Assembly: GCA_963847625.1 (NCBI GenBank)
Contig: CAWKAR010000013.1
Span: forward strand, 96,001-160,000
Reading direction: 5' to 3'
DNA length: 64,000 bases
Source of the DNA: a candidate division FCPU426 bacterium
GTDB lineage: Bacteria; Oederibacteriota; Muellerivitia; Muellerivitales; Muellerivitaceae
How positions within the stretch are numbered: the first letter of the stretch is position 1; every line of letters starts with the position of its first letter. The notes beneath the pieces were generated by a model that was given only the letters and a program-made list of their open reading frames with translations, ran no database searches and had not been told where the DNA came from. A program made the position numbers and the translations under genes. Positions 1,311 through 42,560 of this stretch are shown piece after piece.

Positions 1311-1592
1311 CTAGCCACAGATGTGCCGATTCACCATAAAACAAATATTGAAATCGGTACGATACCAGCCCCCCGAAAAGCTTCATCGAGGGCTGGCATG
1401 CATGGGATTCATGGGATTTGCTTAAAATTAAAAATTTAACATCACACCTGTCCCAAATAAACCTAGCCACGGATGCATGGGATAGATGGGATTTGCGTAA
1501 AATTAAAAATTTAAAATTTAGCATTTAAAATTCATTCATGTTTTTCATGAATGCTTTAGCCATCCGAGTGCATCCCCTGAATCCGTAGCCAA
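1311..1592. repeat. Repeat family A, compound copy carrying a double-hairpin insert at 1322-1400
   Basis: Same inverted repeats and leader as 236-405; intergenic inside the ABC operon. Confidence 0.85.
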
Positions 1593-1612
1593 GATTATGA
1601 GTTGTGGTACTT

Positions 1613-2596
1613 TTACTTATCGCTTCCCTTAAACACCTTCTCAATCACTTCCTCGATGGGCACTTCCTCGATGTTGATGTCGTCCACGTCGAAACGGTTC
1701 AGGATTTCGTTGGAGGCTTGTTTTACCTGTTCCCGCAACACCTTCAAGACCGCCTTGTGCCGGGTGTGCTCCAAGACCGTGCCCAAGGATGACAACTGCT
1801 CCGCCGTTACCCCGCCGTCCTCAAAGGTGACAGTAATAAGCTTGGATTGGGAGAACTGCTCCACCACGTCGTCCAGGCGGCCGTCAAAAATCTTTTTCCC
1901 GTGGTTGATGACGATGACCCGGTCGCAAAGGGCCTGGATGTCGTTCATGTAATGGCTGGTCAAAAGGATCGTGGTCTTGGTCCGGCGGTTGTAGTCGCGG
2001 ATGAACTCCCGGATGTTCTTCTGGGCCACCACGTCCAGCCCGATGGTGGGCTCGTCCAGGAACAACACCCGGGGCCGGTGCAGGAGGGAGGCGATCAGCT
2101 CGAATTTCATGCGCTCGCCGAGCGAAAGCTCGCGCACCATGATCCCCAGGAGCTTTTTCACTTGGAGCAGTTCGGTCATCTCATCCAGGACCTTCTTATA
2201 GTCATCGTCTTCCACGCCGTAGATTTCCTTGTTCAGGAAAAGGGATTCCTGGGCCGGCAGGTCCCACCAAAGCTGGTTTTTTTGGCCCATGACCAGGGCG
2301 AATTGCCGCCGGTACTCGTTCTTGCGTTCCGAGGGAATGAAGCCCAGGACCCGGGCTTCCCCGGTGGTCGGAAAAAGGATGCCGGAAAGCATCTTGAGGG
2401 TGGTGGTCTTCCCCGCCCCGTTGGGGCCCAAAAACCCCACCAGTTCCCCCTCGGCGATGGAAAAGCTCACCCCGTCCACCGCCCTCACCTCGGTGAATTT
2501 GCGGTTGAAAAGCCCCTTAAAAGCCCCGCCCAGGCCCGGCAGGCGTTTCTGGGTTCGGTAGATCTTGGACAGGTCCTTCACTTCAATCATGGGCAT
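1613..2596 (-). CDS. ABC transporter ATP-binding protein
   Basis: Walker A GPNGAGKT, signature LSLGE, Walker B LFLDEP. Start moved to MPMIEV (2596). Confidence 0.93.
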   Translation of the reverse strand: MPMIEVKDLSKIYRTQKRLPGLGGAFKGLFNRKFTEVRAVDGVSFSIAEGELVGFLGPNGAGKTTTLKMLSGILFPTTGEARVLGFIPSERKNEYRRQFALVMGQKNQLWWDLPAQESLFLNKEIYGVEDDDYKKVLDEMTELLQVKKLLGIMVRELSLGERMKFELIASLLHRPRVLFLDEPTIGLDVVAQKNIREFIRDYNRRTKTTILLTSHYMNDIQALCDRVIVINHGKKIFDGRLDDVVEQFSQSKLITVTFEDGGVTAEQLSSLGTVLEHTRHKAVLKVLREQVKQASNEILNRFDVDDINIEEVPIEEVIEKVFKGSDK

Positions 2597-2727
2597 GGGC
2601 TTGATATCTCTCGTTTGATTTTGTAGCTTCGCGAAGTAGTTATTATAGGAACCGCATCGGAAAGATTCCAACTGCCAGAACCGAATTATTTCAACGCCAG
2701 ACCAAAGCGCAAAGTTTAAAAATAAGA

Positions 2728-3010
2728 TATCCCTTTACAACAAGTAAAAGAAAAAGGGCATGGAACCGCCGATCAAATCCGATGTCCTGCATCTCCATAA
2801 AGGAGTTAATGGATTGCGGGACTATACCACTTTCATTTGAAATTCTTTCAATAGTGAAGTGGCATGTGCCAATCTAACATGAAAATATTTTGAGATTGGT
2901 ACTATACCAGCCACATTGAATATTTATGGAAGGCTGGCATGGACGCCGATAAGCTAGAGTAAGTCTTAATCTATAAGCCCTCATCGGCGTTAATCGGCCG
3001 TTATCCACGA
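2728..3010. repeat. Dispersed repeat family B (ACCGCCGATCAAATCCGATGGACGCCGAT...ATCGGCG) with two tandem double-hairpin inserts (2783-2941)
   Basis: Matches the reverse complement of 12808-12900 once the insert is removed; another copy ends at 32000-32085. Confidence 0.8.
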
Positions 3011-3721
3011 TAAAAAAATTGTTTACGTCGATCCCCAAAAAAAATGAATAAAATGCTCGTCCTTCCCTGATATGTCATAACCCGACGGTTACGATTCATC
3101 CCAGAGAGCATCAAAAGAGTTAAAATAAGGCCCACTTAAAGAGGATGGTTGGCCGGTTTGTCCCCAACCCGCGGACCAATTAAATTTGGATAGAATATTT
3201 TTGTAAAGTCATTCAAAGAGTGGTTATGACGAAAAATTTAAGAGAACGCATAAAATTAAAATATGCAAAAGTCGGAATTATATTATTTGGCGTTTTAGAA
3301 ATCATTTTCGCTATAGCCCTGATTTCGGCGCTTATATATGCATCAAGCTTTTTTGATAAAATCCAAAATTATGAAAAGTCGATAAATATTTGGTCTCAAT
3401 TCACAATTGTTATTTTTTGGATAATTGTTTTAATTTGGCTTGGTATTGGAACTTTCCAAATAAAATTATGGGCACGATCAATATGTTTAGCACTTTCTTG
3501 GATCTCATTAGTAGAGGGATCACTTCGGATTTGTACGAGAATTGTTTATGATTATTTTGTTTTCCATTTCAAGACAATTTATGAAGGAGTATTAATTACA
3601 CCAGAGGCTTATTGGACAGAGCTTGGGATCAGAATTATTTCCTCCATACTTTTACTGACCTTTCCCCCGAAAACTGATCCAAAAATATGTTAGTTTTGGA
3701 TTATAGATCGGGAGGGGAAAG

Positions 3722-3991
3722 ATGGCAAAGAAACGGTTTTTATCTGAGCAGATAGTGGCTATTCTCCGCGAGGCGGAGAAAGCTCCCGCCGTTGAGGAAG
3801 TTCTCCGAAAGCATGGCATTTCCGAGCAGACTTACTACCGCTGGAAACGCATGTACGGAAGCCTTGGAGTTTCCGAAGTCCACCGCATCAAACAGCTGGA
3901 AGAAGAAAACCGGAAACTCAAGCAGTTAGCGGGTGATCAGGCCCTGGCTATTCAGGTTCTCCAAGAGCACATAAAAAAAAAGGGGTATTGA
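3722..3991 (+). CDS. IS3 transposase OrfA (HTH)
   Basis: 'KHGISEQTYYRWKRMYG...LEEENRKLK' typical of OrfA; A9G slippery run near 3973-3982 before the orfB overlap. Confidence 0.92.
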   Translation: MAKKRFLSEQIVAILREAEKAPAVEEVLRKHGISEQTYYRWKRMYGSLGVSEVHRIKQLEEENRKLKQLAGDQALAIQVLQEHIKKKGY

Positions 3992-4818
3992 TCGAGGAGC
4001 AAAAAGGCATGGTGGAAGCCCTGAAGGCTCAGGAAGTACCGGAAAGACGAGCCTGTGATGTTCTTGGGGTAAATCGATCGAGTTTTCGATATGAGGCCCA
4101 GCCAGAAGATCCGTTGAACCAGGTGATCCTGCAGGAAATGGTTAAGTTAGCGCAAAGAAACCGACGTTTCGGAAGCCCTCGGATGTTGTGGATGTTGGAA
4201 CGCAGAGGCCTTGATGTGAATCACAAGCGGGTGGAGAGGCTCTACCAGGTAGCAGGGCTTCAATTACCGCGCAGGAGACCCAGGAAGAAGAGGGTTCCGA
4301 CGGAATGGAGAAGGCCCCACCCGGCTTTGGGTTCCAACGAGGTGTGGACGATGGACTTCGTGCATGACCTGACATGGTTCGGGGGAAAGGTGAAGTTTTT
4401 GACGGTGTTGGATGAAGGATTTAGGGAATGCTTGGAGATCCGGGCGGAGAAGCGAATGAGAAGCCGGGACGTGCTGGAGACGCTGGACGAGTTGATGACG
4501 GAGTACGGGACACCAAAGTGCCTGCGGGTGGACAACGGGCCAGAGTTCGTGGCGAAAGAACTGAGGAACTGGCTTGAGGAGAAGGGCGTAGAGGTGCTAT
4601 ATATCGAACCAGGGAGTCCATGGCAGAATGGATTCATCGAAAGTTTCAACGGAAAGTTTAGGGATGAGTGCCTGAACCAAGAAATTTTTCTTTCAAAAGC
4701 GGAGGCCCAGGTAGTCGTGGATTGGTGGAGGCAGGTGTATAACTGGCAGAGACCGCACAGCAGTTTGGGGGGAAAAACCCCAATGGAAGCAAAGGCCGAA
4801 AAGTTGGGCCTTAACTAA
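3988..4818 (+). CDS. IS3 transposase OrfB (DDE integrase core), probably fused to OrfA by -1 frameshift
   Basis: WTMDF, VDNGPEF, PGSPWQNGFIESFNGKFRDE, RPHSSLG motifs. Confidence 0.95.
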   Translation: MIEEQKGMVEALKAQEVPERRACDVLGVNRSSFRYEAQPEDPLNQVILQEMVKLAQRNRRFGSPRMLWMLERRGLDVNHKRVERLYQVAGLQLPRRRPRKKRVPTEWRRPHPALGSNEVWTMDFVHDLTWFGGKVKFLTVLDEGFRECLEIRAEKRMRSRDVLETLDELMTEYGTPKCLRVDNGPEFVAKELRNWLEEKGVEVLYIEPGSPWQNGFIESFNGKFRDECLNQEIFLSKAEAQVVVDWWRQVYNWQRPHSSLGGKTPMEAKAEKLGLN

Positions 4819-5505
4819 CTTAAATTTGGATCAAACATTGGGGGAAGGTCATTACCGTTAATAGTTATCCTATTTTATAGGAATAAATATGTTACAGCGG
4901 CATTCAAAAGCAAAGATTCTAAAATCCCATGGACTGACAAAATCCCATTTTTGGTTCTAATCTTAAGTCTGCTTTTGATCGAAAAGATAATTGGAATTCT
5001 TTTTAGCAACCCATTTACATCTGGTTTGCACCTCTTTTTCGGACACCAAACTTCAAATCTTTATTGGGGTCTTTTCAAAAGCGCGGATGTATTTTTCCTG
5101 CTTTATTTAGCATACGGTGTTTATCAACAAAAGGTTTCTGCTTGGCGGCTTGTAAACGCACGCTATTTTTTATCGCTATTGTCTTGGGTTATAGGTTATT
5201 CCCACGAAAATTACTTAAAAATTTATGAAAATCTTGGTTATTCACAGGAAAAGGCAAATGAATATCTAAGAGGAATTTTTATTGAAAATTACATGATTAG
5301 TTGGTTAATCATCCTTGCAACCATTGGATATTTTTGGTACGTCCGAAAATATTTTTACCCCTCTAAGATGAACAACAGAAAAAATTCGTATAAAAGAACT
5401 TCAATATGGAAATTATGGAATAAACGCCTCAGACATTTGACGGTTTAAACTCTAATTACCTCAAATTTGCGGTCGAAAATCGTCCAGAGTGGGGAGAGAT
5501 AAAGG

Positions 5506-5787
5506 ATGAAGCTTCAATTATCGGTTGCCTGGAAAGTTCGAATTGGTTTTCTTTGTTTTTTTGTAGGAAGCTATGTTTTAAGTAATTTAAGAGCATATGG
5601 TTTTATCGACTCTACAATTTTAGGTGTTGCCGTTGCTGTGTTGACAGGTGTGAGTTTCTTTCCAATCGCAAGATTAAAATGTCCATATTGCAAAGAACCG
5701 TTACCCGGAAAATTTGCAAATCCGGCAATATATGTCTTTCCGGGTCAAAAATGTCCTAAATGTGGTAAGAGGCTAGATGAATCATAA
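5506..5787 (+). CDS. Small membrane protein with C-terminal zinc ribbon
   Basis: Two hydrophobic segments, CPYC...CPKC, AAGG ribosome-binding site. Confidence 0.6.
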   Translation: MKLQLSVAWKVRIGFLCFFVGSYVLSNLRAYGFIDSTILGVAVAVLTGVSFFPIARLKCPYCKEPLPGKFANPAIYVFPGQKCPKCGKRLDES

Positions 5788-5851
5788 AGGAGTAAAAAAA
5801 GATTTGGATTTTAACTGCGGCTATATGGCTCTGTGGTAAAGTCTTCTAATT

Positions 5852-6490
5852 ATGCCCAATCAAAATACAAACAAAATTATCAAGGAACTCAAGCGGCTCT
5901 ACCCCGACACGGGGAGTTTCCTGAAATACCAAACCCCTTTCCAATACCTCTGCGCGGTCATCCTCTCGGCGCAATGCACCGACGCCAGGGTGAATTTGGT
6001 GGCGCCTCATCTTCACAAGGCCTTACCCACCCCCGAGAAAATGGCGAAGGCCAAACTGAAGGACGTTGAAAAGATCATCAAATCCACCGGGTTCTACCAC
6101 AACAAGGCCAAGAACCTGATTGGATGCGCCCAGGCGTTGTTGAGGCTATATCAAGGCAAGATTCCTAAAACCATCGAGGAATTCGTGAAGATCCCGGGTG
6201 TGGGCCGCAAGACCGCCAATGTGGTGCTGGGGGAAATTTACGGCATCGCGGAAGGCGTCACGGTGGACACCCACGTCATCCGGCTTTCCAACCGGTTGGG
6301 ATTCACCCGGTACCAGGACGCCGTCAAAATCGAGGTGGATTTGATGAAGGCGATCCCGAAGGAAGAATGGATCCCTTTTTCCCACCGGCTGATCCAACAC
6401 GGCCGGAAGGTCTGCGACGCCCGCAAACCCTTGTGCGCGGTTTGCACCCTGAGCCAGTGGTGCCCCTCCGCGACGAAATTCATGAGCTGA
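5852..6490 (+). CDS. nth: Endonuclease III
   Basis: ILSAQCTD, HhH motif PGVGRKTAN, VDTHV, 4Fe-4S motif CxxxxxxCxxCxxxxxC. Confidence 0.95.
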   Translation: MPNQNTNKIIKELKRLYPDTGSFLKYQTPFQYLCAVILSAQCTDARVNLVAPHLHKALPTPEKMAKAKLKDVEKIIKSTGFYHNKAKNLIGCAQALLRLYQGKIPKTIEEFVKIPGVGRKTANVVLGEIYGIAEGVTVDTHVIRLSNRLGFTRYQDAVKIEVDLMKAIPKEEWIPFSHRLIQHGRKVCDARKPLCAVCTLSQWCPSATKFMS

Positions 6491-6601
6491 ACAGGCATTC
6501 AGTTCAGGACAACTTGTGCTTATAACCCGGAAAACCAGCGATATACACCGCACCCGATGAAGTATTCCCCGGGCCGTCGGTTCTAAAATAAAATCCAAAA
6601 T

Positions 6602-6640
6602 AAAAAAGCCCCCCAGCCGAAAGGCCGGGGGGCATATTTT
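6602..6640. terminator. Intrinsic terminator between convergent nth and OMP genes
   Basis: AAAAAA-GCCCCCCAGCC-GAAA-GGCCGGGGGGC. Confidence 0.75.
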
Positions 6641-6656
6641 TACCAACGAGACCGCG

Positions 6657-7244: not shown

Positions 7245-7368
7245 ATTTCGCACCCTCCAGAATGGAATGTACTGATAAACAATAATCACGAACATCAACA
7301 TTTATCTTAAGCGTGGTCCTACATATCTGACAGCATAAAAGGGGCTACGCGGGGTAAACAGTTTCCAA

Positions 7369-7465
7369 GGCCAAAAACCCATATGTGGTGTTTGTACCTT
7401 GAGCCAGTGGTGCCCTTCAGCGACGAAATTCAATAACTGATTAGGTCTTAACTTCAGGATAAATT
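7369..7465 (+). pseudogene. Duplicated 3' tip of nth plus a short stretch of its downstream flank
   Basis: Encodes KPICGVCTLSQWCPSATKFNN* versus nth KPLCAVCTLSQWCPSATKFMS*. Confidence 0.85.
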
Positions 7466-7541
7466 TCCTAACTTCAGTTATACAAAGTACAGCCTCAAGC
7501 ATCCCTGGAATCCTTCAAATTCCCCAAGGAAGGAAAGTCTT

Positions 7542-12740: not shown

Positions 12741-13144
12741 TAATTTTTGGCGAATATCCCTTTGAAATAAGTAAACAAGAAAATTAGATTCGATAGTCAA
12801 ACCATTTAACCGCCGATAACGGCCGATTGACGCCGATATCGGCTTATAGTTCAAAGCGTTTTCAAACTTATCGGCGTCCATCGGATTTGATCGGCGGTTT
12901 AACCTTATTTAATTACTTATCTAAAGGGGATAATCGCTTAATTTTTGGCGAATATCCCTTTGAAATAAGTAAACAAGAAAATTAGATTCGATAGTCAAAC
13001 CATTTAACCGCCGATAACGGCCGATTGACGCCGATATCGGCTTATAGTTCAAAGCGTTTTCAAACTTATCGGCGTCCATCGGATTTGATCGGCGGTTTAA
13101 CCTTATTTAATTACTTATCTAAAGGGGATAATCGCTTAATTTTT
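12741..13144. repeat. Two tandem 198 bp copies, each containing a family-B inverted-repeat element inside outer TATCCCTTT...AAAGGGATA repeats
   Basis: Copies start at 12741 and 12939; the only difference I noticed is one G in a homopolymer. Confidence 0.92.
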
Positions 13145-13422: not shown

Positions 13423-16400
13423 TTACCGGCCGGAGATCTTGGCTTCTTCCGATTCAACACTCGCCAAGCGCGCCGCATGCGCCTTCTTTTTCTCGAACCG
13501 CGCCATCACGCTGTAAAAGCACGGCACCACATAAAGCGTGAGCAGGGTCGAAAAGACCACGCCGCCGATGACCGCGATGGCCATGGGGTTGCGGCTTTCC
13601 GCGTCCGGGCCCAAGGCCAGGGCGGCGGGAACGGCGCCCGCGATGGTGGCCACCGAGGTCATCAGGATGGGCCGCAAGGCGGATGGGACAGGCCGTCAGG
13701 AGGGCCTTGCGGACGGATTCCTCCCCCTTTTCCCGTACCTGGTTCGTGAAATCCACCAGCAGGATCGAGTTCTTCTTGACGATCCCCATGAGCAGGATCA
13801 GGCCGATGACGCTGTAGATGTTGATGGACTGGTGGGTGGCCAACAGGGCCATGAGCGCGCCGGAGACGCTGAAAAGGGAAGGGCCATGAGCACCGAGAGC
13901 GGGTCGATGAAGCTGTTGAACTGGCGAAGCCAGCACCATGTAGGCCACGACGATGCCGAGCATCAGCACCCAGAAGAGGCTCTGGAGGGACTCGGTGAAT
14001 GTCTGCGAGCTCCCGGTCAGGGTGATGTGATAGTCCGGCGGCAGGATGCGCTTGGCGATGTCCTGGGCGGCCTGCAGGGCCTTTTGCTGGGACTCCCCCG
14101 CCTTGACGTTGGCGTAAACCGTGATGGACCGTTCCCGGTTGCTGCGCCAGATCGCCACCATGGACTGCTTATTCCTCCATGGTGACCAGGTCGGAAAGGG
14201 GGACCAGTTCGCCCCGGTTGTTCCGCACAAACAGGCTGTTCACCTTGGTGCGCGGGTCTTCGTTGCTCTCTTCCAGTTTCAGGCGGATGTCGTAACGGTG
14301 GCCGCCTTTCTCATAGGTGCCGACCAGGACGCCGCCGATCATGGCCTCCATGATCTGGGAGATGCTGGCGATGCTCACCCCGCGTTCGGACGCCTTTTTG
14401 CGGTCGGGCACCACGTGCAGTTCGGGCTGGCCCAGGGCATAATTGGTGTCCAGGTCGGTGACCAGGCCGGTCTTTTCCAGCTCCGTCCATTATTTGTTTG
14501 CGAATAATCCGCCAGCTTGTCCCAATCCGGCCCCTGGACCGTGAACTCCACCGGGAAACCCCGGGAGGCGGTAAAAGCCTTGGTGGAAAGGTCCTGGATC
14601 ACCGCGCTGCACGTCGGGGATCTTGTTGAACTGCTTCCGGCAGACGCCCATGAATTCCTGCTGGCTCAGTTCGTGCCCCACGGTCGGATCGATTCCCGCG
14701 CTTGCCCCGGTCCTTCATCGTGACCAGCACGAACCGCTGTTGGAGTCGCCGGGAGAACCTCCCCCGACCTGCAGGACGTAGCGGTCCACCTCGGGCTTCG
14801 GGACGCGAGGAATTTCTCGACCTCGCTGAATTTCTGGTCCGAATAGGTCAGGCGCCGAGCCAACCGGGGTCTTGAGCCGGACATTGAACCGGCTCTGGTC
14901 CTCGGGAGGGATGAATTCCTTGTTGAGACACCAAAAAGCCGAGAAGCTCAAGGCGAAGAGCGATCAGCGCCGCGACGAATCACCTTCCAGCGGTGGTTCA
15001 AGGCCGTCGCCAAGCGACTCCGCGTAAAACATCGCTCGTCTTGTCCATGAGCCATTCCATCCCCTTGCCGAACCGGGTCGTCCGTTTTCCGATATCCACG
15101 AACTGCGAACAGCGCATGGGGGTCAGGGTCAGGGCTTCCAGAAGGGACAGCAGCACGGCCACCGTGATGGTCACCCCGAACTGGAAGAAGAATTTCCCGA
15201 TCACGCCGCTCATGAAGGCCACCGGCAGGAAGATCGCCACGATGGAGATGGTGGCGGCCATGGCGGCGAAGGTGATTTCCCTGGACCCGGCCAGGGCCGC
15301 CAGGATCCTGTTCTTGCCCTTTTCCTGGTGGCGGATGATGTTTTCCAGCACCATGATGGCGTCATCCACCACGATGCCGATGGAAAGGCTGAGGCCCAGC
15401 AGGGTAAAGGTGTTCAGGGTGAACCCGGCGAAATAGAGCACGATGAAGGTGCCGACGACCGAGGTCGGGATCGCCAGCAGAACGTTCAGGGTGGATGTCC
15501 AGGAACCCAGGAACATCCAGCAGACCAGCGCGGTCAAAAGGGCCGAGAGCAGCAGCGTGAAGTTCCAGCTCGTGGACCGCTTGTTCGATATAGCGGGTGC
15601 TGTCGAAGTTGACAGCTCAGCTTCATGCCCTCGGGCAAGCCCTTTCTGGACCTCCGCGACCTTGGCCCGGACGGCTTTGGCCACCGCGACGGCGTTGGAC
15701 CCGCGCTGCTTGAGGATGTTCAGCGCGACGCCAGGGGTCCCCATGGCGCGGCTGATCCTCAAGGCGTCGGCCATGCCTTCCTCGATCCGCGCGACTTGAT
15801 TCAGGTGGATGCGGGATATAGTTCGGCTGCCCGCCGCGCTGGTTGATGACCAGGTCGCCGAATTCCTCGATGGTTTTGGCTTCGCCCATGGTCCGGACAT
15901 TCAATTGCCGCTTTCCCTCCTCCAACTGGCCCGCGGGGGATTCCAGGTGCTCGTTCTGGATCGTGTTGATGACGTCATTGACCGAAAGCGCGTAGCGGTT
16001 GAGCGCCTTGCTCATCCACCCAGATGCGCAGGTTGGGGTCGCGGTAACCGCCCAGGGTAATGTCGCCGACTCCCGCCACCGTGGAGAACTGGTCCTTGAT
16101 GCGGTCATTGCGTAAGGACATCAGGTCCTTGAGGGGATACTTATCGCTCTCCAGGGTCAGCAGCATGATCGGCTGGTCCTCGGGATTGGATTTGCGGATG
16201 GTCGGCGAGGTGATTTCCTTGGGAAGTTTCTGCAGGACGGAGGCGACTTTGGCCTGGACGTCCTGGACCGCGAGGTCGATATCGCGGTTGAGCTCGAATT
16301 CGATCGTCACGGTTCCTTCGCTGTCTTCCGACTCGGAGGTGACGCTGCGGATGCTCTGGATGCTCATCACCGCGTCCTCGACGATATCGACGATGGAGGT

Positions 16401-16580
16401 TTCGATGACCTCCGGGGCCGCCCCTTCCAGGCGGATATTGACGGAAACCACGGGATAGTCCACGTCCGGAAGCTGGCTGATCCCCATGCGCATGAAGGAG
16501 ATCCCGCCGAATACGATGAGCCCGGCCATGAGCATCCAGGCAAAGACGGGCCGTTTGATGGAAATTTCGGAAAGATTCAA
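13423..16580 (-). pseudogene. AcrB/AcrD/AcrF-family RND efflux permease, multiply frameshifted (true pseudogene or sequence errors)
   Basis: MNLSEISIKRPVFA, GIVVDDAIMVLENI, GIVKKNSILLVD, RPILMT motifs spread over about 10 ORF pieces in shifting frames. Confidence 0.9.
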
Positions 16581-16720
16581 GGTTTACCCCAATAGGTTTT
16601 GGACGGAAAATCATAACATAATGGAGCGGATTTGATTCGAACCATCGGCACTATAGATTGGATTATGGAATCAGGCTTTTGGGGGAGACAGGCCAAAGAC
16701 GGAAAACCTTAAAAAGGATC

Positions 16721-23648: not shown

Positions 23649-23763
23649 TACAACCTAGGTTCCGTTATTAAAAACGGCTCATCTATTTACGAAAAGTCAT
23701 AAATCATGCCTGACCCCGTTTACATTTCCGACAGGCAGGCCACCCCTTCCGACAGGGCTACCT

Positions 23764-24146
23764 TGGAACTCCGGAACTAGCCCGGAATTCGGGAACTAGC
23801 CCGGAACTCCGGAACTGGCCCGGAACTTCGGAACTGCCCGGAACTCCGAAACTGCCCGGAACCCCGGAACTAGCCCGGAACCCCGGAACTAACCCGGAAC
23901 CTCGGAACTGCCCGGAACCCCGGGAACCACGAGAACTGCGGGAACCACAGGAACCCCGGGAACTGCGGGAACTCAGGAACCACGGGAACCCGGGAACTAC
24001 GGGAACTCGGGAATCCAGGAACCACAGGAACTCAGGAACCCGGGAACTCTGGAACCACAGGAACCACGGGAACCACGGGAACTCGGGAACTACGGGAACC
24101 ACGGGAACTCGGGAACCACGGGAACTACGGGAACTCGGGAACTCGG
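23764..24146. repeat. Low-complexity tandem tract of 8-11 bp GGAACY-based units
   Basis: About 40 units such as GGAACCACG, GGAACTCG, GGAACTAGCCC. Confidence 0.92.
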
Positions 24147-24170
24147 GGGTCCTAGTGGCAGGTTTCGGGA

Positions 24171-25618: not shown

Positions 25619-25718
25619 CATGCCAGCCTTCCATAAAGCTAATTGTGAGGCTGGTATAGTACAAATTTCACCCAATTAACCGGCCACAGGCCGGGAATAA
25701 AGATGTGAATTTGCACAT
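25619..25718 (-). repeat. Double-hairpin unit (family E), reverse orientation
   Basis: Reverse complement reads ATGTGCAAATT...AATTTGTAC-TAT-ACCAGCC...GGCTGGCATG. Confidence 0.75.
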
Positions 25719-26936: not shown

Positions 26937-27348
26937 ATCTAGTCCAAATTTGGAATTAGTACTTCCATATTTTATCACCTTCCCGGGAAGAAACCATACT
27001 GAAATCCCTGAAAAACCAAAAAAGCGGCCAACAGGAGTTCGACCCCATACCGATTTCTTCTTTAGAAGCCTAAAAGAGATCGGCATAGTCCCCCGGGCTG
27101 CGCCGTAGGCGCTGCGGTAAGTCGGCCATGCCGACGGTACTTCCGCCCCATGCCGGTAGGCGGCATACCCCATGCCAGTAGGTGGTAAGCCAGTAAGCCC
27201 AGTCTTCCGACAGGGGTACCTTTCCGACAGGCAGGCCACCCCTTCCGACATGGCTACCTTGGAACTCTGGAACCGGCCTGGAACCACTGCAACTCGGGAA
27301 TCCAGGAACCCTGGAACTCTGGAACCCGAGAACTGCCCGAGAACCCGA

Positions 27349-27850
27349 GAACTGGCCACCCGAGGCCACAAGCCGAGGGTGATGCTTGCCAGTGCAGATT
27401 CAAATGAAATCTGTGCCCGAGAACTAGCCGAGAACCCGAGAACTACCCGAGAACCCGAGTACTGCCCGAGAACTGGCCACCCGAGGCCACAAGCCGAGGG
27501 TGATGCTTGCCAGTGCAGATTTAAATGAAATCTGTGCCCGAGAACTAGCCGAGAACCCGAGAACTACCCGAGAACCCAAGAATTGCCCGGGATCCCGAGA
27601 ACTACCCGAGAACCCGAGAACTAGCCGAGAACTGGCCACCCGAGGCCACAAGCCGAGGGTGATGCTTGCCAGTGCAGATTTAAATGAAATCTGTGCCCGA
27701 GTACTGCCCGGGATCCCGAGAACTACCCGAGAACCCGAGAACTAGCCGAGAACTGGCCACCCGAGGCCACAAGCCGAGGGTGATGCTTGCCAGTGCAGAT
27801 TTAAATGAAATCTGTGCCCGAGAACTACCCGAGAACCCGAGAACTGGCCG
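27349..27850. repeat. Four copies of a ~72 bp constant unit separated by 49/87/49 bp spacers made of GAACCCGA-type microrepeats
   Basis: Units start at 27349, 27470, 27629 and 27750; each contains the hairpin CAGATTT-AAATG-AAATCTG. Confidence 0.92.
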
Positions 27851-27854
27851 GGAA

Positions 27855-28017
27855 CCCGGTGAAAGCCGGTAAAGTCGGTGAAGCCAGTGAAAGCCGGTGA
27901 AAGTCGGTGAACCCGATAAGGACGGTAAGCCGGTAAGCCGGGCGGTAAGCCCAACAATAAGCGGTAAGGGCGGTAAGCCAGAAAGCCGGTAAGCCAGGCG
28001 GTAAGCCGGGGCGGTAA
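27855..28017. repeat. Low-complexity CGGTAAGC / CGGTGAA tract
   Basis: Tandem degenerate 8-11 bp units. Confidence 0.8.
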
Positions 28018-31952: not shown

Positions 31953-32116
31953 AAATAAACCCTCCAGCAAAAGGGAGTTAAGTAAGTAAATCCCATAGTT
32001 TAAGGCTCTCTCAAACTTATCGGCGTCCATCGGATTTGATCGGCGGTTACATGTCTTTTTGCTTTTATTTGTTGTAAAGGGATACTTTCTTGCTGAAACA
32101 TGGAAAAATAGCCGGC

Positions 32117-34650: not shown

Positions 34651-34775
34651 TTGCCACGGATTCAGGGGATTCATTTAGATGGCCAAAACCAATTCCTAAC
34701 ACCTCACTACTAATTGTTTTTATATCCCATATATCCCATGCATCCGTGGCTAAGTTTATTTTGGGTAGGTGTGAC
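34651..34775. repeat. Repeat family A copy (reverse orientation)
   Basis: GCCACGGATTCAGGGGAT...ATCCCATGCATCCGTGGCTA...TTTGGGTAGGTGTG. Confidence 0.85.
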
Positions 34776-34840
34776 TTAAATTTATAATTTTCTGTATTTC
34801 GATTTTTTTCCCCTTAAAATGCGGCACGGAGGTTTGAAAA

Positions 34841-35410
34841 ATGGACAAGAAACTTTTGGAGAATTTGGGGCCCCTGGCCCCCCTGCCCGGCATTTGGGAA
34901 GGGCAAACCGGGGATGACATCGCGCCCTCCGACGACCGGGGGACCGAGAACAACAAGTACCGGGAAAGGATGACCTTCGAGCCCCTTCCTCCCGTCCAAA
35001 ACCACGAGCAAATGATGTACGGCCTGCGTTACCTGACCCAGGCTTGGCGCTTGGGTGAGGCGGACCCCTTCCACGACGAAGTGGGCTATTGGCTGTGGGA
35101 GGAAAAGAAAGGCATGATCCTGAAATGCGTTATGGTTCCCCGCGGGGTAGGTCTGATCGCCTCAGGCAAGGCGAAGCCGGACGCCAAGATTTTCAAGTTG
35201 TCCGCCATGGCGGGGAGCCCCTATGGGATCGTCGAAACCCCGTTCTTGAGCGAGGAATTCCAAACGGTGGGATTCGATTTGGAAATGAACATCCAAGAAC
35301 CCCGCATCCTGACTTACAAACAAGTGACCAGCCTCAGGATTAAGGGCCAGGACAGCGTTTTCGAGCACAAGGACCAAAACACGCTGAAATTTATCCGGCC
35401 GGTGGAATGA
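34841..35410 (+). CDS. FABP/nitrobindin-like (DUF1794) beta-barrel protein
   Basis: 'LGPLAPLPGIWEG..G.D', 'FHDEVGYWLW', 'FEHKDQNTL'. Confidence 0.78.
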   Translation: MDKKLLENLGPLAPLPGIWEGQTGDDIAPSDDRGTENNKYRERMTFEPLPPVQNHEQMMYGLRYLTQAWRLGEADPFHDEVGYWLWEEKKGMILKCVMVPRGVGLIASGKAKPDAKIFKLSAMAGSPYGIVETPFLSEEFQTVGFDLEMNIQEPRILTYKQVTSLRIKGQDSVFEHKDQNTLKFIRPVE

Positions 35411-35635
35411 ACGGCTAAGGCAAACCCTTCTTAGCCACAGATGCAGGGGATGCATGACATTCCAAAAAACCAGGAATGAATTATGAATGAACTGCCAAGG
35501 CAAACCCTTCTTAGCCACAGATGCAGGGGATGCAATTAGATGGCCGAAGAAAAGAGGCTTTAAATATTTATGTGTTTATTAAATCCCATGAATCCCATGC
35601 ATCCGTGGCTAAAGTCTATTTTGGACAGGTGTGAA
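35408..35635. repeat. Repeat family A copy (reverse) with a duplicated end
   Basis: Two AAGGCAAACCCTTCTTAGCCACAGATGCAGGGGATGCA ends; near mirror image of 41200-41350. Confidence 0.88.
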
Positions 35636-35700
35636 ATTAAACCATAATTGTTAATTCAAAATTAATCATTCTAACAACAGGCAGGTTATGAAAACCCCAA

Positions 35701-36423: not shown

Positions 36424-38586
36424 CTACATCTCCATCACAATAGCGTCGTAGTATTTCAGGGAAGGGACCTGTATCTTCATTGTCTTGCCGTCGTATTCAA
36501 AGGGAAGTTTCTGTGCTCCCTTGAAATCAGGTGAGACCATGTAAACCTTCGACGGTTTTTTGTCCGTTTCCAAGGACGCCTTGAATCCACCCAACGGTTC
36601 GATCTTCCCGTCGTAATTGTGGTTGACCAGGTGAAGGACCAGACGTTTGGGCTTATCCTGGGCCATCAAGTTTAAGGATATGTTTTTTTCTTCGACCGTA
36701 ACAGGTTGAGGGGCGTATTCATTATGGTGGTATAAATCCGCATGGTTCTTGTAGTACAGAACATAATCCTTGGTGAAATCCAGCATCCCCAGGTCCTGTG
36801 CACTCGGGCCTGCGTCCGTCGTTTCCAGGTGAAAGGCATAATAACAACCTGCGGCATAGGCTTCGGCGGCGTAGATCTGCCAGAAATCCTTCTTTTGTTC
36901 TAGCGGCAAGGCGCAATAGTTATTGATCGCTTCGTTGGTGAAATCCAGGAAGAACACCAGGGGCACCTTGCCGGAGGTTTGTTGGCTTCTTCGGTTCATT
37001 ATTTTATAGGCGTCCATGAGCGGCTTGTCGCCCCTCAATGAGCCTTTCTCGACCGGCACATAATCGTACCCCGACCAGTCGCTGATACCGTCGCCCTTGT
37101 CGCAATTGGGGGTATAGATGCCCAAGCTGTTGAAGTCCGCGTAAGGCATGATGCCGTTGTCGGTGACCAGCAGCTTCTTCCCGTATTTTTCCAGGGCGTA
37201 ACGCCGGAGTTCGTCAATGATTTCCTTGTAGTATTTCGGGATATAGGTGCCGGTGAAGGTGTCGGAAAGGTACATCCGGTTGCCGATGACTTTTCCCCAC
37301 TCCTTAGCCAGGGGGTTGGATGGGCTGAGGACGCATTTTCCACCCCAATTGTTTTCGGTCCAGCCGTTCTTTTGCAGGTAGTTCCGGTAGTTGAAGTTCC
37401 TTTTCAGATCCTCCGGCGGGACATCCCTTTTGAGGATGTTGTCGTCCGTCATCTTGAACTCGCTTTTCCAATCGGCTGCCTGGTACTGGGGGTATTTGGC
37501 AAGGAGATAGCGGTTGAAATCCGCGATCGAGGCGTCCTCGTATCCCTCGTTGTTGGTCCAATTCCGCTGGGGGCCTCCCAGATAGGGCGAGTTGGGCTCA
37601 TCAAAGTGGATACCGTCGGCGCCGCCGTCGATCTGGATCTTGCAGATGTCGGTGATGTATTTGCGGTAGAGGGGGTTGGCCAGCGAGCCGCGGTATTGGT
37701 CGGGTCCGATGCCGAGACCCTGGTCGGCCCAAGGCACCAACTCGCCGTTTGCGTCCCGGGTTGCCATGTCGCGGAACTGCGCCTCATCCTTGAACTCCTG
37801 TTTCTGGATGACCGTGGTCATGCCGCCCATATAGAGGATCCCGGCGTGATGGCTGGCCTTGACCGCGTCAAAGTTGTAATCCTCCGGATGGTTGCCGTTC
37901 GTCCCCCATTTAATGACGGACCGGTCATTGATGTCGGCTTTTACCTCGCAGATCCAGGGGTTGTTCTCCTTCAGCGTCTGCTGGCCGTAAACGTAAACGG
38001 TTAGGCGGTTGATGTCTGTGTCCAGCTTCCGGTCCTCCAAGCCCAGGAGTGCGGTTTTCAGCGGCTTTTGAGTGACATCCTTGAGCGTGACGTGGGCGAG
38101 GGTGACGCGGCCCGGCGCGGTGAACAAGAACTGGAACATCGCCGCCTCATCGGTGGGATTGGTCATGGTGAAGGTGTATGTGTACTTTGTCATTTTTTGG
38201 CTGAGCGGGAAACTCCTCATCTTGGAGTAGGCGGTCCAGGGTTCCTTGCCCAGTTGCACCTGGGATATCAGGGTGAAGGTCTGGTCGGCTTTCGCCTCGA
38301 AGGATGCCTCATAGGATCGGCCGTACTCAATCCTCACGTCCGGCTGTAGGCACCCGATCGACCAGGGGGACCCGAGCGTGTCGATCCGAATCTCGGCGGC
38401 CCCGTCACGGACGGTAAATTCACCCGTAGTACCTGGATGAGTCCAGAAATTCCAACCTTGGGTCCCTTGGCTGAAATCGCCGTTCTGGAGCATGTTATTC
38501 CCTTGGGAAGGGGGAGCGGCGGACAGGAAAAGCGATAAGGAAAACATCGTCAGCACACATACACCGGTTTTGAAAAAACGTCCCAT
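36424..38586 (-). CDS. Secreted protein: CBM4/9-like domain plus putative glycoside-hydrolase catalytic domain
   Basis: Signal peptide, 'NMLQNGDFS..WNFW...YEASFEAKA' CBM pattern, 'GADGIHFDEP' TIM-barrel-like motif. Confidence 0.65.
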   Translation of the reverse strand: MGRFFKTGVCVLTMFSLSLFLSAAPPSQGNNMLQNGDFSQGTQGWNFWTHPGTTGEFTVRDGAAEIRIDTLGSPWSIGCLQPDVRIEYGRSYEASFEAKADQTFTLISQVQLGKEPWTAYSKMRSFPLSQKMTKYTYTFTMTNPTDEAAMFQFLFTAPGRVTLAHVTLKDVTQKPLKTALLGLEDRKLDTDINRLTVYVYGQQTLKENNPWICEVKADINDRSVIKWGTNGNHPEDYNFDAVKASHHAGILYMGGMTTVIQKQEFKDEAQFRDMATRDANGELVPWADQGLGIGPDQYRGSLANPLYRKYITDICKIQIDGGADGIHFDEPNSPYLGGPQRNWTNNEGYEDASIADFNRYLLAKYPQYQAADWKSEFKMTDDNILKRDVPPEDLKRNFNYRNYLQKNGWTENNWGGKCVLSPSNPLAKEWGKVIGNRMYLSDTFTGTYIPKYYKEIIDELRRYALEKYGKKLLVTDNGIMPYADFNSLGIYTPNCDKGDGISDWSGYDYVPVEKGSLRGDKPLMDAYKIMNRRSQQTSGKVPLVFFLDFTNEAINNYCALPLEQKKDFWQIYAAEAYAAGCYYAFHLETTDAGPSAQDLGMLDFTKDYVLYYKNHADLYHHNEYAPQPVTVEEKNISLNLMAQDKPKRLVLHLVNHNYDGKIEPLGGFKASLETDKKPSKVYMVSPDFKGAQKLPFEYDGKTMKIQVPSLKYYDAIVMEM

Positions 38587-38784
38587 ATCGATGCCTCCCA
38601 GTGGCTTCTTTTAAACAGGGTGTCCCAGCCTTCATAAACCCCGGCTGAAATCACACTTATTGGACGAAACCGGATTTCGGAAGTGTCGTGAATAGAACGA
38701 GGTTTTTTAAAAAATGGATTTACTCAAATGACCTTGCCCAGCTAAGGAGGCGAATAATTTGCGCTTCACACTTCTGCCGTTACC

Positions 38785-38860
38785 TGTCCACGACCCCTGC
38801 AACAAGCCGGGGGCGGCAACGAACCATCGCTGCGGTGCGATGGTTTCCCCATCGTGGACA
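38785..38860 (-). repeat. Family C hairpin site (long variant)
   Basis: TGTCCACGA...TCGTGGACA, 2 nt after the stop of ORF 38863-39045. Confidence 0.85.
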
Positions 38861-38862
38861 AC

Positions 38863-39045
38863 TTAATCAGGTTTTCTTTTACGTAGACTCTTTACATTAT
38901 CTATGTAATCGCCAAATTTAAACCGGCCTGTGATAGAAACCATTCCCATGCCGAATGATAAATATAAGAAACTTAAACAAAATAAAATCCTAAACCAAAG
39001 TTGGCTATGAAATCCTTTACTCATTCCCGCCCAATTGGGCAACAC
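38863..39045 (-). CDS. Small AT-rich hydrophobic hypothetical protein
   Basis: One TM segment; stop abuts a family C site. Confidence 0.35.
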   Translation of the reverse strand: MLPNWAGMSKGFHSQLWFRILFCLSFLYLSFGMGMVSITGRFKFGDYIDNVKSLRKRKPD

Positions 39046-39092
39046 CCTTTACTCTTCTACTCAGTTGTTCACGACGGGTCCCCATTATTCTC

Positions 39093-40874
39093 CTACTTTA
39101 AAACCACCGGCAATTGAAGCCCGTCCTTGGCCAGACGCGCCGGGATTGTCGCGGTCTTGGAACCCTTGGTCACCGTCACCTCGTAATCCCCCAGGAAACC
39201 CCGCGTTTGATAGGAACCCTGGTCGTCCGTCTCGCCATCGGCGTTGGTCCACCAGTCCTTCAGGACCAGGTCCTCATAGGCCCGGCCCGACGGCTTTTCG
39301 GTCCAATCCTTGTGGAAGAGCGGCGCCTTCGATTGCCAATGGGCCCCGTCCCAGAATCCCCACATTAAAAATCCGTTGGTCGAGGGATGGCTGAAAACAG
39401 CGGTTAAGAAGTCCTTCAGGAACTGGGCGTCCAATTGGCCGTCCGTAATGTTCGTATCGTATTCGGTGATTTCAACGGGCAATCCATGGGCCCCGAGCTG
39501 GTCCAGGGTCTTGAGCAACGCGGGGATGGACCAGGGGGAATTGCCCACGTGGCCCTGCAAGCCGATTCCGCCCAAGGGCGCGCCGGCTTTAAGAAGGTAC
39601 CCAATGATTTTGTCGTAGGCGTCCAGGTGTCCCGTGGAATCCGGGCTGGGGTAGTCGTTCACGAAGAGGACCGCTTTCGGGTCCGCCTCCCGGGCCGTCT
39701 TGTACCAGGTGACCATGGCGCTATCCCCCAACAGGTCCGTCAACTGGTGCTCCGGGACCGGTTCGTTGACCACGTCCCACTCCGCCAGCTGTCCCTTCAT
39801 GGTGCCGCCCACGTCCTTGATCCGGCTTTCGATTTTATCCTCCAGGGCCTTGGGATCGCCCGCCAGCGGCTTCACGTCGGCCGGGATGTAGCGCCAGGTA
39901 CCCCAAACCATGTTGTGGCCCCTCACCTCGAACTTCCGCTGGGAAAGCCACTTCATCGCCCCCTCCACGTATTCGCGTTTCCAGTAACCGCTGTTGGAGG
40001 CTCCCTCTTCCCAGGGCCCCCATTTCAGGTCGTTCTCGAAAACCACCTTGTTGAAAAGCCTCGCGACCTCCTTTTGGTAACGGTCGTTGTCGATATCCTC
40101 CGTCGCCAGGTCCTTCGCCACCACGGCCGCGCCGAAGCCGAAAGCGTGGCGTTTCATGCGCACCGACACCTTCGCGCCCGGCAAGGGATTCCCCTTGCCG
40201 TCTTTCACGGTCACGGTCAAGTCACCCTTGCGGATCTTCTCGATGCGTTCCCGCGCTTCCTTGCGCCAGGGCGCGTCGGCCTCCTCGCCTTCATAGGTCA
40301 GCTTGGTCTGGGGCAGGTCCCCGACTTTCACCTGGGTGCCGTAGTTCGTCACTTTGAGGCCGGCCAGTTCGAAGACTTGCGGGTGATATCCCATGCGGAA
40401 GCAAATATGGGATTTTCCCCCGTCCAAATCTTCCGCGATGGTGAAGGGAATTGAAAATTTTCTCCATTTCGGCCCGGCTGAAAGGGTGTAGCTGACGGAT
40501 TTCGTCCAGGGGTCGCCCATGCGCTCGAAGACGAACTCGCTGGAGGCCTCGCCGCTTTCCACGCTGGTCTGGGCGGCCCGCATCCAGAATTCGGCCAATA
40601 CCACGTCGCCGGCCTTCACCGCCACCGGGATGGGGGCCTCCACCTGTACGTCCCAAACATTGGTGGTGGCTACCAGGGTGGTGAGTTTGATGGCTTCCTT
40701 GAAGGTCTGGCCCTCCGCCGGAACCAGCTCGGCGGTTCCCTTTTCCTTGTTCGTGATGTTTAAAACCTCGATGCCCGGCTTGGAAAAGAGGTCTTGGCCC
40801 CCGGGAGGGGCCGTCTGGGCGAATAAAGAGGCGGGAAACAGCAGGATGAAACTAACAATGAAATTTTTAAGCAT
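39093..40874 (-). CDS. GH10 endo-1,4-beta-xylanase with N-terminal CBM-like domain
   Basis: ENDLKW, RGHNMVW, WDVVNEP (acid/base), GIGLQGH, ITEYD (nucleophile), WGFWD; signal peptide MLKNFIV. Confidence 0.92.
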   Translation of the reverse strand: MLKNFIVSFILLFPASLFAQTAPPGGQDLFSKPGIEVLNITNKEKGTAELVPAEGQTFKEAIKLTTLVATTNVWDVQVEAPIPVAVKAGDVVLAEFWMRAAQTSVESGEASSEFVFERMGDPWTKSVSYTLSAGPKWRKFSIPFTIAEDLDGGKSHICFRMGYHPQVFELAGLKVTNYGTQVKVGDLPQTKLTYEGEEADAPWRKEARERIEKIRKGDLTVTVKDGKGNPLPGAKVSVRMKRHAFGFGAAVVAKDLATEDIDNDRYQKEVARLFNKVVFENDLKWGPWEEGASNSGYWKREYVEGAMKWLSQRKFEVRGHNMVWGTWRYIPADVKPLAGDPKALEDKIESRIKDVGGTMKGQLAEWDVVNEPVPEHQLTDLLGDSAMVTWYKTAREADPKAVLFVNDYPSPDSTGHLDAYDKIIGYLLKAGAPLGGIGLQGHVGNSPWSIPALLKTLDQLGAHGLPVEITEYDTNITDGQLDAQFLKDFLTAVFSHPSTNGFLMWGFWDGAHWQSKAPLFHKDWTEKPSGRAYEDLVLKDWWTNADGETDDQGSYQTRGFLGDYEVTVTKGSKTATIPARLAKDGLQLPVVLK

Positions 40875-41049
40875 GGGGAAAGTTTCCTTTTTATTTGGGA
40901 TTTGCGGCATGAACAACGATCACGCTCATAGCCCTCAAAGGGGCCATGATTCATGGCCAGCAACCGCCATGATCATAAGGTTTTACGCGGATAATGGAAT
41001 TAAAAAATCAAAAGTGGAAATGCAAGCCAAGCCGGTATTTATTTCAAGT

Positions 41050-41365
41050 CACACCTGTCTAAAATAATATCTAGCCGCGGATGTGCCGATTCACATTAAG
41101 ACAGTTAAAGAAATCGGTACGATACCAGCCTCATTAAAAGAATTATTGATGGCTGGCATGCATGGGATATATGGGATTTGCTTAAAATTAAAAATTTAAC
41201 ATCACACCTATCCCAAATAAACCTAGCCACGGATGCATGGGATTCATTGGATTTAACAAACACAAATATTTAAAGCCTCTTTTCTTCGGCCATCTAAATG
41301 CATCCCCTGCATCTGTGGCTAAGAAGGGTTTGCCTTAGCAGTTCATTCATAATTCAAAATTTAGA
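41050..41365. repeat. Repeat family A compound copy with double-hairpin insert (41082-41160)
   Basis: Composite of the 1311-1490 and 236-405 arrangements. Confidence 0.88.
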
Positions 41366-41369
41366 ATTG

Positions 41370-42422
41370 CCGAATTCACGGAGTAAGTGCAACACTTCGC
41401 CGGAAGACTTCCGCCGGAGTTTTAAAGCCCAAACATTTCCTGGGCCTGTTATTGAGCCATCTTTCTATGGTCCTGAATTCTTTGAAGGACACTTTAGCAA
41501 GATCAGTCTTTTTAGGCAAATGGCGGCGGACAAGACCGATAGTATTTTCCACCGTACCTTTTTCCCAACTGTGGAAAGGGGCGCAGAAAAAGGATTTTGT
41601 ACCAAGCACGTGGTTGGTTTCCAAGTGGTTGGTGTTTTCGGTTCCGTTGTCATAGGTCAGACTCAGGCGGGCGTCTTGAGGGAAGCGGCATAAAGCGCGG
41701 TTGAGGCTATGACTCATTTGGCGAGCGGTCTTTCGTTTGAGCTTTCCCAACTTGGAAAAACGGCTTTGACGCTCGACGAGAGCCCGCATAGCCACTTTAC
41801 TCTGACGAGAGACCATGGTGTCGGTTTCCCAATGGCCGAATTGCTTGCGTTGATTGGCGATCTCGGAGCGCTTATCGATGGAAACACGGCCTGGGATATG
41901 GTTTTTGGCGTGCTTACGGCTATGGCCAAATGAGAATCGTCGCCGGTGGTGTCGAACTAGGCAAGGAATCAGCTCAGTGGCTTCAGCATAAACCCACTGA
42001 TAGATAGCTTCAGGACCAATGGTTTGCTTAGGCCGTAGGTGACCTAATCGACCTGAAATGAGTTCTGGAGACCAGCCTCGTTTCAATTGACGACGGACGT
42101 AGGCACGAATTCGTTTTGTTTTCAGGCGTAAACGGCGTGCTCGTTGTTGGTTGCGGTCAACATACCGTTGATGGGCTCGATGAGAAAGATAATAACCAGA
42201 ACGGATAGGGGGAGCATTGCGCTTGAGTTCCCTGGAGAGGGTGGAAGGAGACCTCTTCAAGGCGCGTGAAATTGCTCGAAGGCTAAGACCCTTTCCTTTC
42301 AAGACGGATAAATGATCTCTTTCTTCAACGCTTAAATGCTTGTATTTCTTTTTCATAGCCGCATATCCTATTCATGCGGCCTTCTTCAGACACTAAGTGT
42401 TGCACTTACTTATGGAACTCGG
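41370..42422 (-). mobile_element. IS30-family insertion sequence
   Basis: Inverted repeats CCGAATTCACGGAGTAAGTGCAACACTT / AAGTGTTGCACTTACTTATGGAACTCGG around a single transposase. Confidence 0.88.
41376..42356 (-). CDS. IS30-family transposase
   Basis: 'YKHLSVEER', 'STLSRELKRN', GHWETDT, TYDNGTE, WEKGTVEN, NNRPRKCLGFKTP. Confidence 0.95.
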   Translation of the reverse strand: MKKKYKHLSVEERDHLSVLKGKGLSLRAISRALKRSPSTLSRELKRNAPPIRSGYYLSHRAHQRYVDRNQQRARRLRLKTKRIRAYVRRQLKRGWSPELISGRLGHLRPKQTIGPEAIYQWVYAEATELIPCLVRHHRRRFSFGHSRKHAKNHIPGRVSIDKRSEIANQRKQFGHWETDTMVSRQSKVAMRALVERQSRFSKLGKLKRKTARQMSHSLNRALCRFPQDARLSLTYDNGTENTNHLETNHVLGTKSFFCAPFHSWEKGTVENTIGLVRRHLPKKTDLAKVSFKEFRTIERWLNNRPRKCLGFKTPAEVFRRSVALTP

Positions 42423-42560
42423 GATTCATAATTCATTCCTGGTTTTTTGGAATGTCATGCATCCCCTGAATCTGTGCCGATCATCTATAAAAATTATTGG
42501 AGATCGGTACGATACCACCTTCCTTATAATCTTTATTGAAAGGTGGCATGTGGCCAAGGA
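42423..42560. repeat. Continuation of the family A copy beyond IS30, with double-hairpin insert (42473-42550)
   Basis: ATTCATAATTCATTCCTGGTTTTTTGGAATGTCATGCATCCCCTG matches the reverse complement of 35443-35488. Confidence 0.82.

Follow-up and report, generated by a model that had tools for sequence, protein, structure and literature searches.

Background

Repetitive extragenic palindromic (REP) sequences are described as being cleaved at a dinucleotide that is set by a foot located 5′ of the hairpin (PMC8266576, PMC3116915, 10.1101/2021.07.10.451892). For the transposase TnpA-Mb, the published account has CA selected through foot bases T2 and G4, with base 3 skipped, and the site altered when the foot is altered, such retargeting being reported there only in vitro and for one REP system (PMC8266576). 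IS200/IS605 insertion sequences are likewise described as being recognized through a hairpin and cleaved as single strands at a guide-selected site (10.1101/279083), TIRYT/TIRtron repeats of subclass 2.1 are reported to carry the motif GGGGWSAS (PMC3733652), and IS110 modules are reported to bear one dinucleotide at both ends, to share it in tandem and to insert in REPs (10.1101/2025.01.17.633520). How REPs and REPINs are copied and how their targets are chosen is still an open question. In this work we analyze a 64,000-nt stretch (hereafter, the window) of the 4.43-Mb genome of a candidate division FCPU426 bacterium (contig CAWKAR010000013.1, positions 96,001 to 160,000), in which a preliminary description had pointed out six copies of a double-hairpin unit bordered by TG dinucleotides. 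Our results reveal that the units are a dispersed mobile DNA element family of one uncultured bacterial family, and that the dinucleotide at which a unit inserts is apparently chosen by a three-base foot in the unit's own middle.

Results

All six units were located where they had been proposed and with the proposed stems, the reverse-strand unit running from TG to TG within the limits given in Table 1, and two hairpins form on each strand tested (10 folds; z -2.1 to -5.5). The unit spans about 77 bases and would be laid out as a core dinucleotide, a variable hairpin (hairpin 1), a three-base foot, a conserved hairpin (hairpin 2) and again the core dinucleotide. A strict pattern recovers 73 copies in the genome and none in each of three shuffles, and a hidden Markov model (HMM) search recovers 155 loci; long open reading frames (ORFs) contain only 10 of 153 loci. 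The full pattern is present in 13 of 41 related genomes, all 13 in one family, and hairpin 2 with its foot occurs in 29 of the 30 other family genomes, where single matches may be due to chance. Of the 68 genomes examined outside the family, 29 yield one to five pattern matches, and none of the matches listed are hairpins. A metagenome scan returned 107 loci with 110 distinct pattern matches, and a loose-pattern scan of contigs returned at least three loci with true units among the 100 matches listed; a true unit occurs in a named record, that of a Candidatus Firestonebacteria metagenome-assembled genome (L102). The window has no Rfam match at gathering score, viral scans gave zero and six matches (all six by chance, none a true unit), and no true unit was obtained by BLAST against plasmids and phages. 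We found no description of the family in the literature, although supplementary repeat lists could still hold one.

The unit had been proposed to be non-autonomous, structure-defined and mobile, its removal together with one TG regenerating the empty site, and this is borne out by precise gain and loss of the unit plus one dinucleotide. When the flanks of each of the 73 units were joined by one, two or no core dinucleotides and then matched elsewhere, 58 units found a match with one core, one with two cores and two with none, a few of the 58 one-core matches being tandem junctions instead of empty hosts. The four empty-site words quoted in the preliminary description all occur in the window. 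Orthologous comparisons support mobility directly. The site at 263-276 of the window is empty here and filled in G001, and G003 and G076, whose flanks are identical at the guaB start, differ there by exactly one unit plus one TG, present in G003 and missing from G076 (this site is also empty in G000, G019 and G024). The dnaE start is filled in G019 and G021 and empty in G024. Units also form head-to-tail arrays, G001 harboring one of seven units in two variants and another of eight identical units, with one TG per junction. At its orthologous site, G001 shares the tandem pair at 2783-2941, and it lacks the whole repeat cluster at 1322. Within one host repeat, a TT allele is found empty 54 times and never filled, whereas the TG allele is filled. 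Excision was not seen in one contig set of low share, which is uninformative.

Such one-core matches are also obtained for 38 of 150 random intergenic TG sites; the difference from 58 of 73 indicates that units are enriched in repeats, in part because filled repeats are copied whole, and unit subtypes follow particular host repeats. The earlier statement that the unit always lies inside other repeats does not hold, as units also occur in unique DNA, including start codons.

The flanks, previously given as always TG, vary in a structured way. Among the 73 strict copies they read TG/TG in 56, CG/CG in seven, TA/TA in four and otherwise in six, only two flanking positions being conserved. The central trinucleotide tracks the flanks in three genera, reading C-N-A with TG, C-N-G with CG and T-N-A with TA. 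Of 243 distinct units, 220 have a foot that pairs with the right core and 219 one that pairs with the left core, and in 13 of the 18 units with a changed foot (C-N-G or T-N-A) both flanks have changed to match. Core and foot columns rank, beside the stems, among the top mutual-information pairs. In two further genera (six genomes), a count made by eye among the matches listed (about 150 of about 1100) gave seven TA-type and six CG-type concordant hairpins versus five discordant ones. The foot reads C-N-A on one strand and T-N-G on the other, with the middle base free, and to judge by its letters it has the same geometry as the TnpA-Mb foot on either strand.

Covariation of the stems was analyzed on 79 units, chosen by loop lengths of 27-28 and 28, and upheld the original proposal: both sides have changed in 10 of 18 pairs, a value reached by none of 500 shuffles, and slid controls gave one to three pairs. 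A doublet of one hairpin had also been proposed, and the base motif common to both hairpins in this genome and its closest relatives does make the unit look like a doublet. This stands for the main subfamily. Across the family, only hairpin 2 and the foot are constant and hairpin 1 sequences are unrelated, hairpin 1 being any stem of some 15 to 58 bases that starts directly after the left TG and ends directly before the foot. A paired hairpin 1 under a strict rule accompanies 255 of 304 TG-type copies of hairpin 2, versus 96 of 1117 shifted controls, and most of the remaining 49 have a bulged hairpin 1 by eye. Since hairpin 1 is freely variable family-wide, the G-T pair at its base is not the invariant that had been claimed: alternatives include TCCC/GGGA, TCCT/AGGA and CACC/GGTG, and the unit at 2783 likewise has an alternative base. 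More constant is the A-C mismatch at the base of hairpin 2, retained in 78 of the 79 aligned units and flipped to G-T in some copies outside the alignment. Nor are the loops unrelated between copies: among 243 first hairpins, CCATAA (at most one mismatch) recurs in 138, and among the 243 second hairpins, TTATGG recurs in 167. The suggested strand asymmetry has no tie to gene direction (26 units sense, 38 antisense; p 0.17) or to GC skew (40 to 45). An alternative fold with paired outer ends was rejected because variants keep hairpin 1 paired. Longer, four-hairpin versions, with two added hairpins between the standard ones and TG flanks where checked, occur at G000 C57:102943-103085, C63:92912-93050 and C21:16369, 19749 and 25108, and at L260:7368-7510.

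Some units lie exactly at the ATG start codons of guaB, dnaE, a thiamine-binding protein gene and others (Table 1). The dnaE insertion is common to two genera, with the word TATAAT a few bases ahead of the first ATG. As A-TG forms the end of the unit, a copy inserted at an ATG provides another one on its far side, in many cases preceded by a purine-rich word. A long frame starts from this terminal ATG in 23 of 332 units (some of them spurious), including 6/23 in the five-genome set. The regenerated ATG may explain how the element survives at essential genes.

The preliminary description had suggested looking for a RAYT/Y1, IS110 or tyrosine-recombinase gene flanked by the unit hairpins, and none was found at the loci examined. 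No cognate enzyme emerged among the Y1, tyrosine, serine and IS110 families in this genome, no enzyme recurs in ORFs adjacent to units (in this genome, the 107 metagenome loci and the G001 and G016 regions), and no gene-containing version was seen among the 304 TG-type hairpin-2 copies. A local Y1 profile run over all six frames yielded nothing beyond three known genes and one fragment. These three genes, like full-length ones from relatives, have GGGGTCAG-type inverted ends, which place them in the TIRYT class, and the genes for the predicted TIRYT-type Y1 proteins, on G000 C39, C24 and C22, are the only Y1 genes of this genome that read as intact. Some units lie in hairpins attached to TIRYT-type ends, and the TIRYT transposases would be a candidate enzyme, as a lead only. 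Searches for Y2/ISCR (IS91) transposases returned nothing in 5 and in 31 genomes and are uninformative, as their controls were silent too. Facing pairs of units in G011, G072 and G073, considered as an enzyme-bearing form, enclosed ordinary genes, and a 596-residue neighbor considered as the cognate enzyme is an AraC regulator.

Several observations were made alongside these searches. One IS110 type inserts directly beside TIRYT ends, on both sides in L003 (loci L001-L003, L018-L043 and L332-L351). A unit adjoins each of two related proteins without a Pfam match, one of 583 and one of 512 residues (G000 C3:26082-27833 and C37:144-1682). An element with three recombinases and long inverted ends, which we take to be RIT-like, lies at G000:C20:38768-42101.

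A protein of some 105-125 residues with a Y1 fold is found in single copy in 29 of the 30 other family genomes and in none of 68 genomes outside; the same search gave a weak match in G012. It is encoded at G000:C31:8494-8781 (L410:2983-3324), lies at a conserved locus in most cases and is conserved at about 50% identity, and its neighbors are often what we presume to be lipoyl synthase-like, sulfonate ABC-like and nicotinamidase-like genes. Its structural model (predicted local distance difference test 81.6) matches the ISDra2 and IS608 transposases (E about 1e-6; Z 13.1, root-mean-square deviation 4.1, 109 aligned) and a REP transposase at Z 9.1, and its nearest intact relatives are of RAYT type. 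The HUH motif reads P-D-R-V-E, without the HUH histidines, and the chain stops before the catalytic tyrosine helix, so the protein cannot be the cutter; in model and sequence it looks like a domesticated dead transposase. No units flank it, genomes that have no more than one unit-like match retain it, and family-specific genes are numerous. A two-protein, self-guided system, in which this catalytically dead protein would bind hairpin 2 and recruit an active TIRYT Y1 protein to cut at the dinucleotide specified by the foot, strikes us as a long shot. Were it true, the unit would amount to a minimal insertion cassette, retargeted in nature, whose cargo hairpin is free and which could also insert at start codons and restore them.

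Table 1. Coordinates of units, unit parts, empty sites and start-codon insertions (window positions unless a locus is named)
Feature	Position	Strand	Remarks
Unit	1322..1400	+	Both flanking TG included; foot CGA; inside host repeat between ABC ATPase and permease genes
Unit	2783..2866	+	Subfamily with different hairpin 1 base (TCCT/GGGA); first of tandem pair, one TG in common
Unit	2865..2941	+	Foot CTA; second of tandem pair
Unit	25619..25717	-	Longer first loop
Short GC-rich palindrome	25680..25695	-	Within first loop of unit 25619-25717
Unit	41082..41160	+	Foot CGA
Left core dinucleotide TG	41082..41083	+	Unit 41082; covaries with foot
Hairpin 1	41084..41119	+	Unit 41082; variable family-wide; places left TG beside foot
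Central foot C-N-A	41120..41122	+	Unit 41082; putative guide, middle base free
Hairpin 2	41123..41158	+	Unit 41082; conserved family-wide; base TACC/GGCA including A-C mismatch
Right core dinucleotide TG	41159..41160	+	Unit 41082; reads ATG with preceding A
Unit	42473..42550	+	Foot CGA
Possible seventh unit, partial	27045..27090	-	CTA foot and hairpin-2 variant with TG end; approximate limits; weak HMM score 9.7
Empty host site	263..276	+	TG at 269-270; orthologous G001 site filled
Empty host site	1468..1481	+	Same repeat as 263..276
Empty host site	41228..41241	+	Same repeat as 263..276
Empty host site	35594..35607	-	Same repeat as 263..276
Empty host site	34735..34748	-	Same repeat as 263..276
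Empty form of tandem-pair site	32022..32033	-	Others at 12873-12884 and 13071-13082
Empty form of unit-42473 site	41311..41319	+	Further copies at 35434-35442 and 35514-35522, minus strand
Start-codon insertions	L366:1501-1544, L365:1501-1544, L309, L356, L361, L362, L369		

No paired hairpin 1 was found at the partial unit listed in Table 1. GC-rich palindromes like that at 25680 are also present in the first loop of the units at G000 C60:57660 and C3:149116, and these first-loop palindromes resemble hairpins adjoining IS200/IS605-type genes (a resemblance only; compare L014). The host repeats (190-420, 1400-1620, 34700-35650 and 41160-41370) are mosaics of near-tandem words of 7 and 9 bases, many of which carry one TG per period. 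Elsewhere in the window, an AcrB-family gene lies in several pieces at 13454-16600, where two ORFs match different parts of PF00873, and two tracts (23761-24164 and 27224-27978) contain GC-rich tandem repeats of 9 to 19 bases with related sequence.

Discussion

The reading that we favor, at slightly better than even confidence, is that of a REP-like non-autonomous element moving as folded single-stranded DNA, with a Y1/HUH enzyme acting in trans. The data show the fold, the family, its mobility and the coupling of foot to core. Since no enzyme was identified, we infer the mechanism, including the class of the enzyme, the strand on which it acts and the circle step, as follows. A Y1/HUH transposase made elsewhere would bind the conserved hairpin 2 on the single strand, and foot bases 1 and 3 would pair with the dinucleotide, the middle base being looped out, so as to pick both cleavage sites and the target. 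Hairpin 1 would mainly serve to bring the far core beside the foot. Cutting at both cores would yield a small circle with one core, and the circle would insert at any exposed matching dinucleotide, leaving a core on both sides. This mechanism would account for the apparent two-base duplication, the shared cores of arrays, the low target specificity and the foot-core coupling. The preliminary description had suggested either an HUH/Y1 enzyme or a tyrosine recombinase acting in trans; the foot-core covariation lends support to the former and not to the latter, the integron integrase search having found none over cut-off in 31 family genomes (assemblies incomplete).

A number of results weigh against movement by a Y1/HUH enzyme. 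The foot is not GTAG, and cleavage would lie in a stem extension, nearer the hairpin than in known TnpA ends. None of the Y1 loci examined has an active gene placed between units in the manner of a REPtron, the full-length genes having their own GGGGTCAG-type ends instead. A Y1 gene is present in 10 of 13 genomes with units and in 19 of 28 without, G021 and G019 (98-99% complete) carry units without a Y1 match, and the correlation of counts (rho 0.38) has genome size as a confounder. The TG seen two bases beyond the TIRYT end in 37 of 68 ends counts in favor, but these ends are non-independent. As for the coupling itself, about 23 of the 243 rows are discordant or false matches, and the units with a changed core group together by descent (8 parsimony changes versus a shuffled mean of 12.8, on a tree built from very short sequences), so that independent events are few; the TA type in this genome is one lineage.

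The same features invite other explanations. Reading the unit as an attC-like folded single-strand site for a tyrosine recombinase, in which core and foot form a crossover duplex with one extrahelical base, would make good sense of a core-foot pairing that is supported on both sides. A looped-out base and the primacy of structure over sequence are the logic of attC sites, and the fold of the unit fits it; the genome also has 18 tyrosine-recombinase matches, and the sites of the three-recombinase element have a 5-6 letter word in common with the unit. Yet an integron integrase over cut-off is found in 0 of 31 family genomes, there is no attC consensus, no recombinase adjoins a unit (the nearest good half-unit is 3.7 kb off), targets have only two letters in common and orientation is not shared with neighboring genes (26 sense, 38 antisense), all of which leaves this reading unlikely. 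An integron array on contig C3 was itself rejected because there is no orientation bias genome-wide. We deem it very unlikely that an IS110-family recombinase moves the unit as a non-autonomous module at a two-base core, in the way of the free ssr9 modules of ISPpu9: there are 14 IS110 matches in the genome and a core dinucleotide on both sides of the unit, but the ends of three IS110 types in this genome are unlike the unit, with a best shared word of 8 letters that we judge to be at chance level, and neither the diverse targets, given one bridge RNA, nor a foot-core coupling internal to the DNA would be expected. Still less probable is movement as double-stranded DNA, whether by a serine transposase (IS607-like) or by a DDE transposase with a 2-bp duplication. 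The two-base direct repeat and inverted ends of 4-5 bp would formally fit, but of the five resolvase matches, which resemble large serine integrases or fragments, none lies near a unit end, no multicopy element among the 30 largest repeat groups of the genome has unit ends, and internal covariation is left unexplained.

Two further accounts dispense with a dedicated mobility system or make it secondary. Units could spread by copying of host repeats, slippage or template switching, with covariation arising from hairpin-templated correction. That unit subtypes track host repeats, that 58 of 73 units lie in a repeated context versus 38 of 150 random TG sites, and that the tandem pair is inherited in common with G001 all favor such passive spread, which likely contributes part of the copy number. 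As the whole explanation it is distinctly doubtful, given the exact insertions in unique DNA at the guaB and dnaE starts, the retention of a mismatch and a looped-out base beside covarying pairs, and the presence of unrelated first hairpins with the same hairpin 2. Alternatively, the unit could be primarily a structured RNA or regulatory leader, its mobility being incidental, since at some gene starts the unit provides both a Shine-Dalgarno-like word and a new ATG, and at dnaE it is retained across genera. The lack of strand bias relative to genes, the lack of an Rfam match and the small share of units that open a long frame (23 of 332) make this highly improbable.

The favored REP-like reading brings with it a small testable substrate, combining three natural foot-core pairs, fixed ends, exact empty sites and a free hairpin 1. 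If an enzyme is found, the unit would be a 77-base guided insertion element; without one, it is a well-defined, lineage-specific repeat family.

Comparison with known systems

Integron attC sites share with the unit a folded strand, an extrahelical base and the conservation of structure over sequence. The attC boxes, however, read RYYYAAC and GTTRRRY, and these are absent from the unit alignment; there are no oriented cassette arrays and the unit moves without cargo. Like the ssr9 modules of ISPpu9, the unit has one dinucleotide at both ends, shares it in tandem and inserts in repeats, but a sequence-specific target and ends shared with a parent insertion sequence, which set those modules apart, are not seen for the unit. 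It differs from miniature inverted-repeat transposable elements of the DDE type in that no resident insertion sequence among the 30 largest repeat groups has the unit's terminal repeats. TIRYT elements are present in the lineage, their ends are often followed by TG and some units lie in hairpins attached to TIRYT-type ends; GGGGWSAS, though, is absent from the unit alignment. With IS200/IS605, the unit would share, under the proposed mechanism, the recognition of a hairpin and guide-selected cleavage of a single strand, but its site has two bases instead of four or five, a single central foot takes the place of the guides present at both ends of those elements, and no autonomous version was found.

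The closest likeness is to REP, BIME (bacterial interspersed mosaic element) and REPIN-RAYT systems, which are also described as short intergenic hairpin repeats, present in many copies, in clusters or arrays and with long persistence in one lineage (PMC8266576, PMC3116915, 10.1101/2021.07.10.451892). As in REPs, the dinucleotide of the unit is paired by a foot, which here is known from covariation only. The unit differs in that its hairpin foot lacks the GTAG (or GGAG/CGTC) tag, in its large AT-rich loops, in its two hairpins on one three-base foot and its fixed ends, in the coexistence of natural foot-core variants, and in that no RAYT is flanked by units among the Y1 loci examined. Taken together, these features suggest an element that works like a REP or REPIN without being a member of that class by its tag or by a cognate gene. 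The covariation of foot and flank is new here, and the kind of element resembles the known REP repeats.

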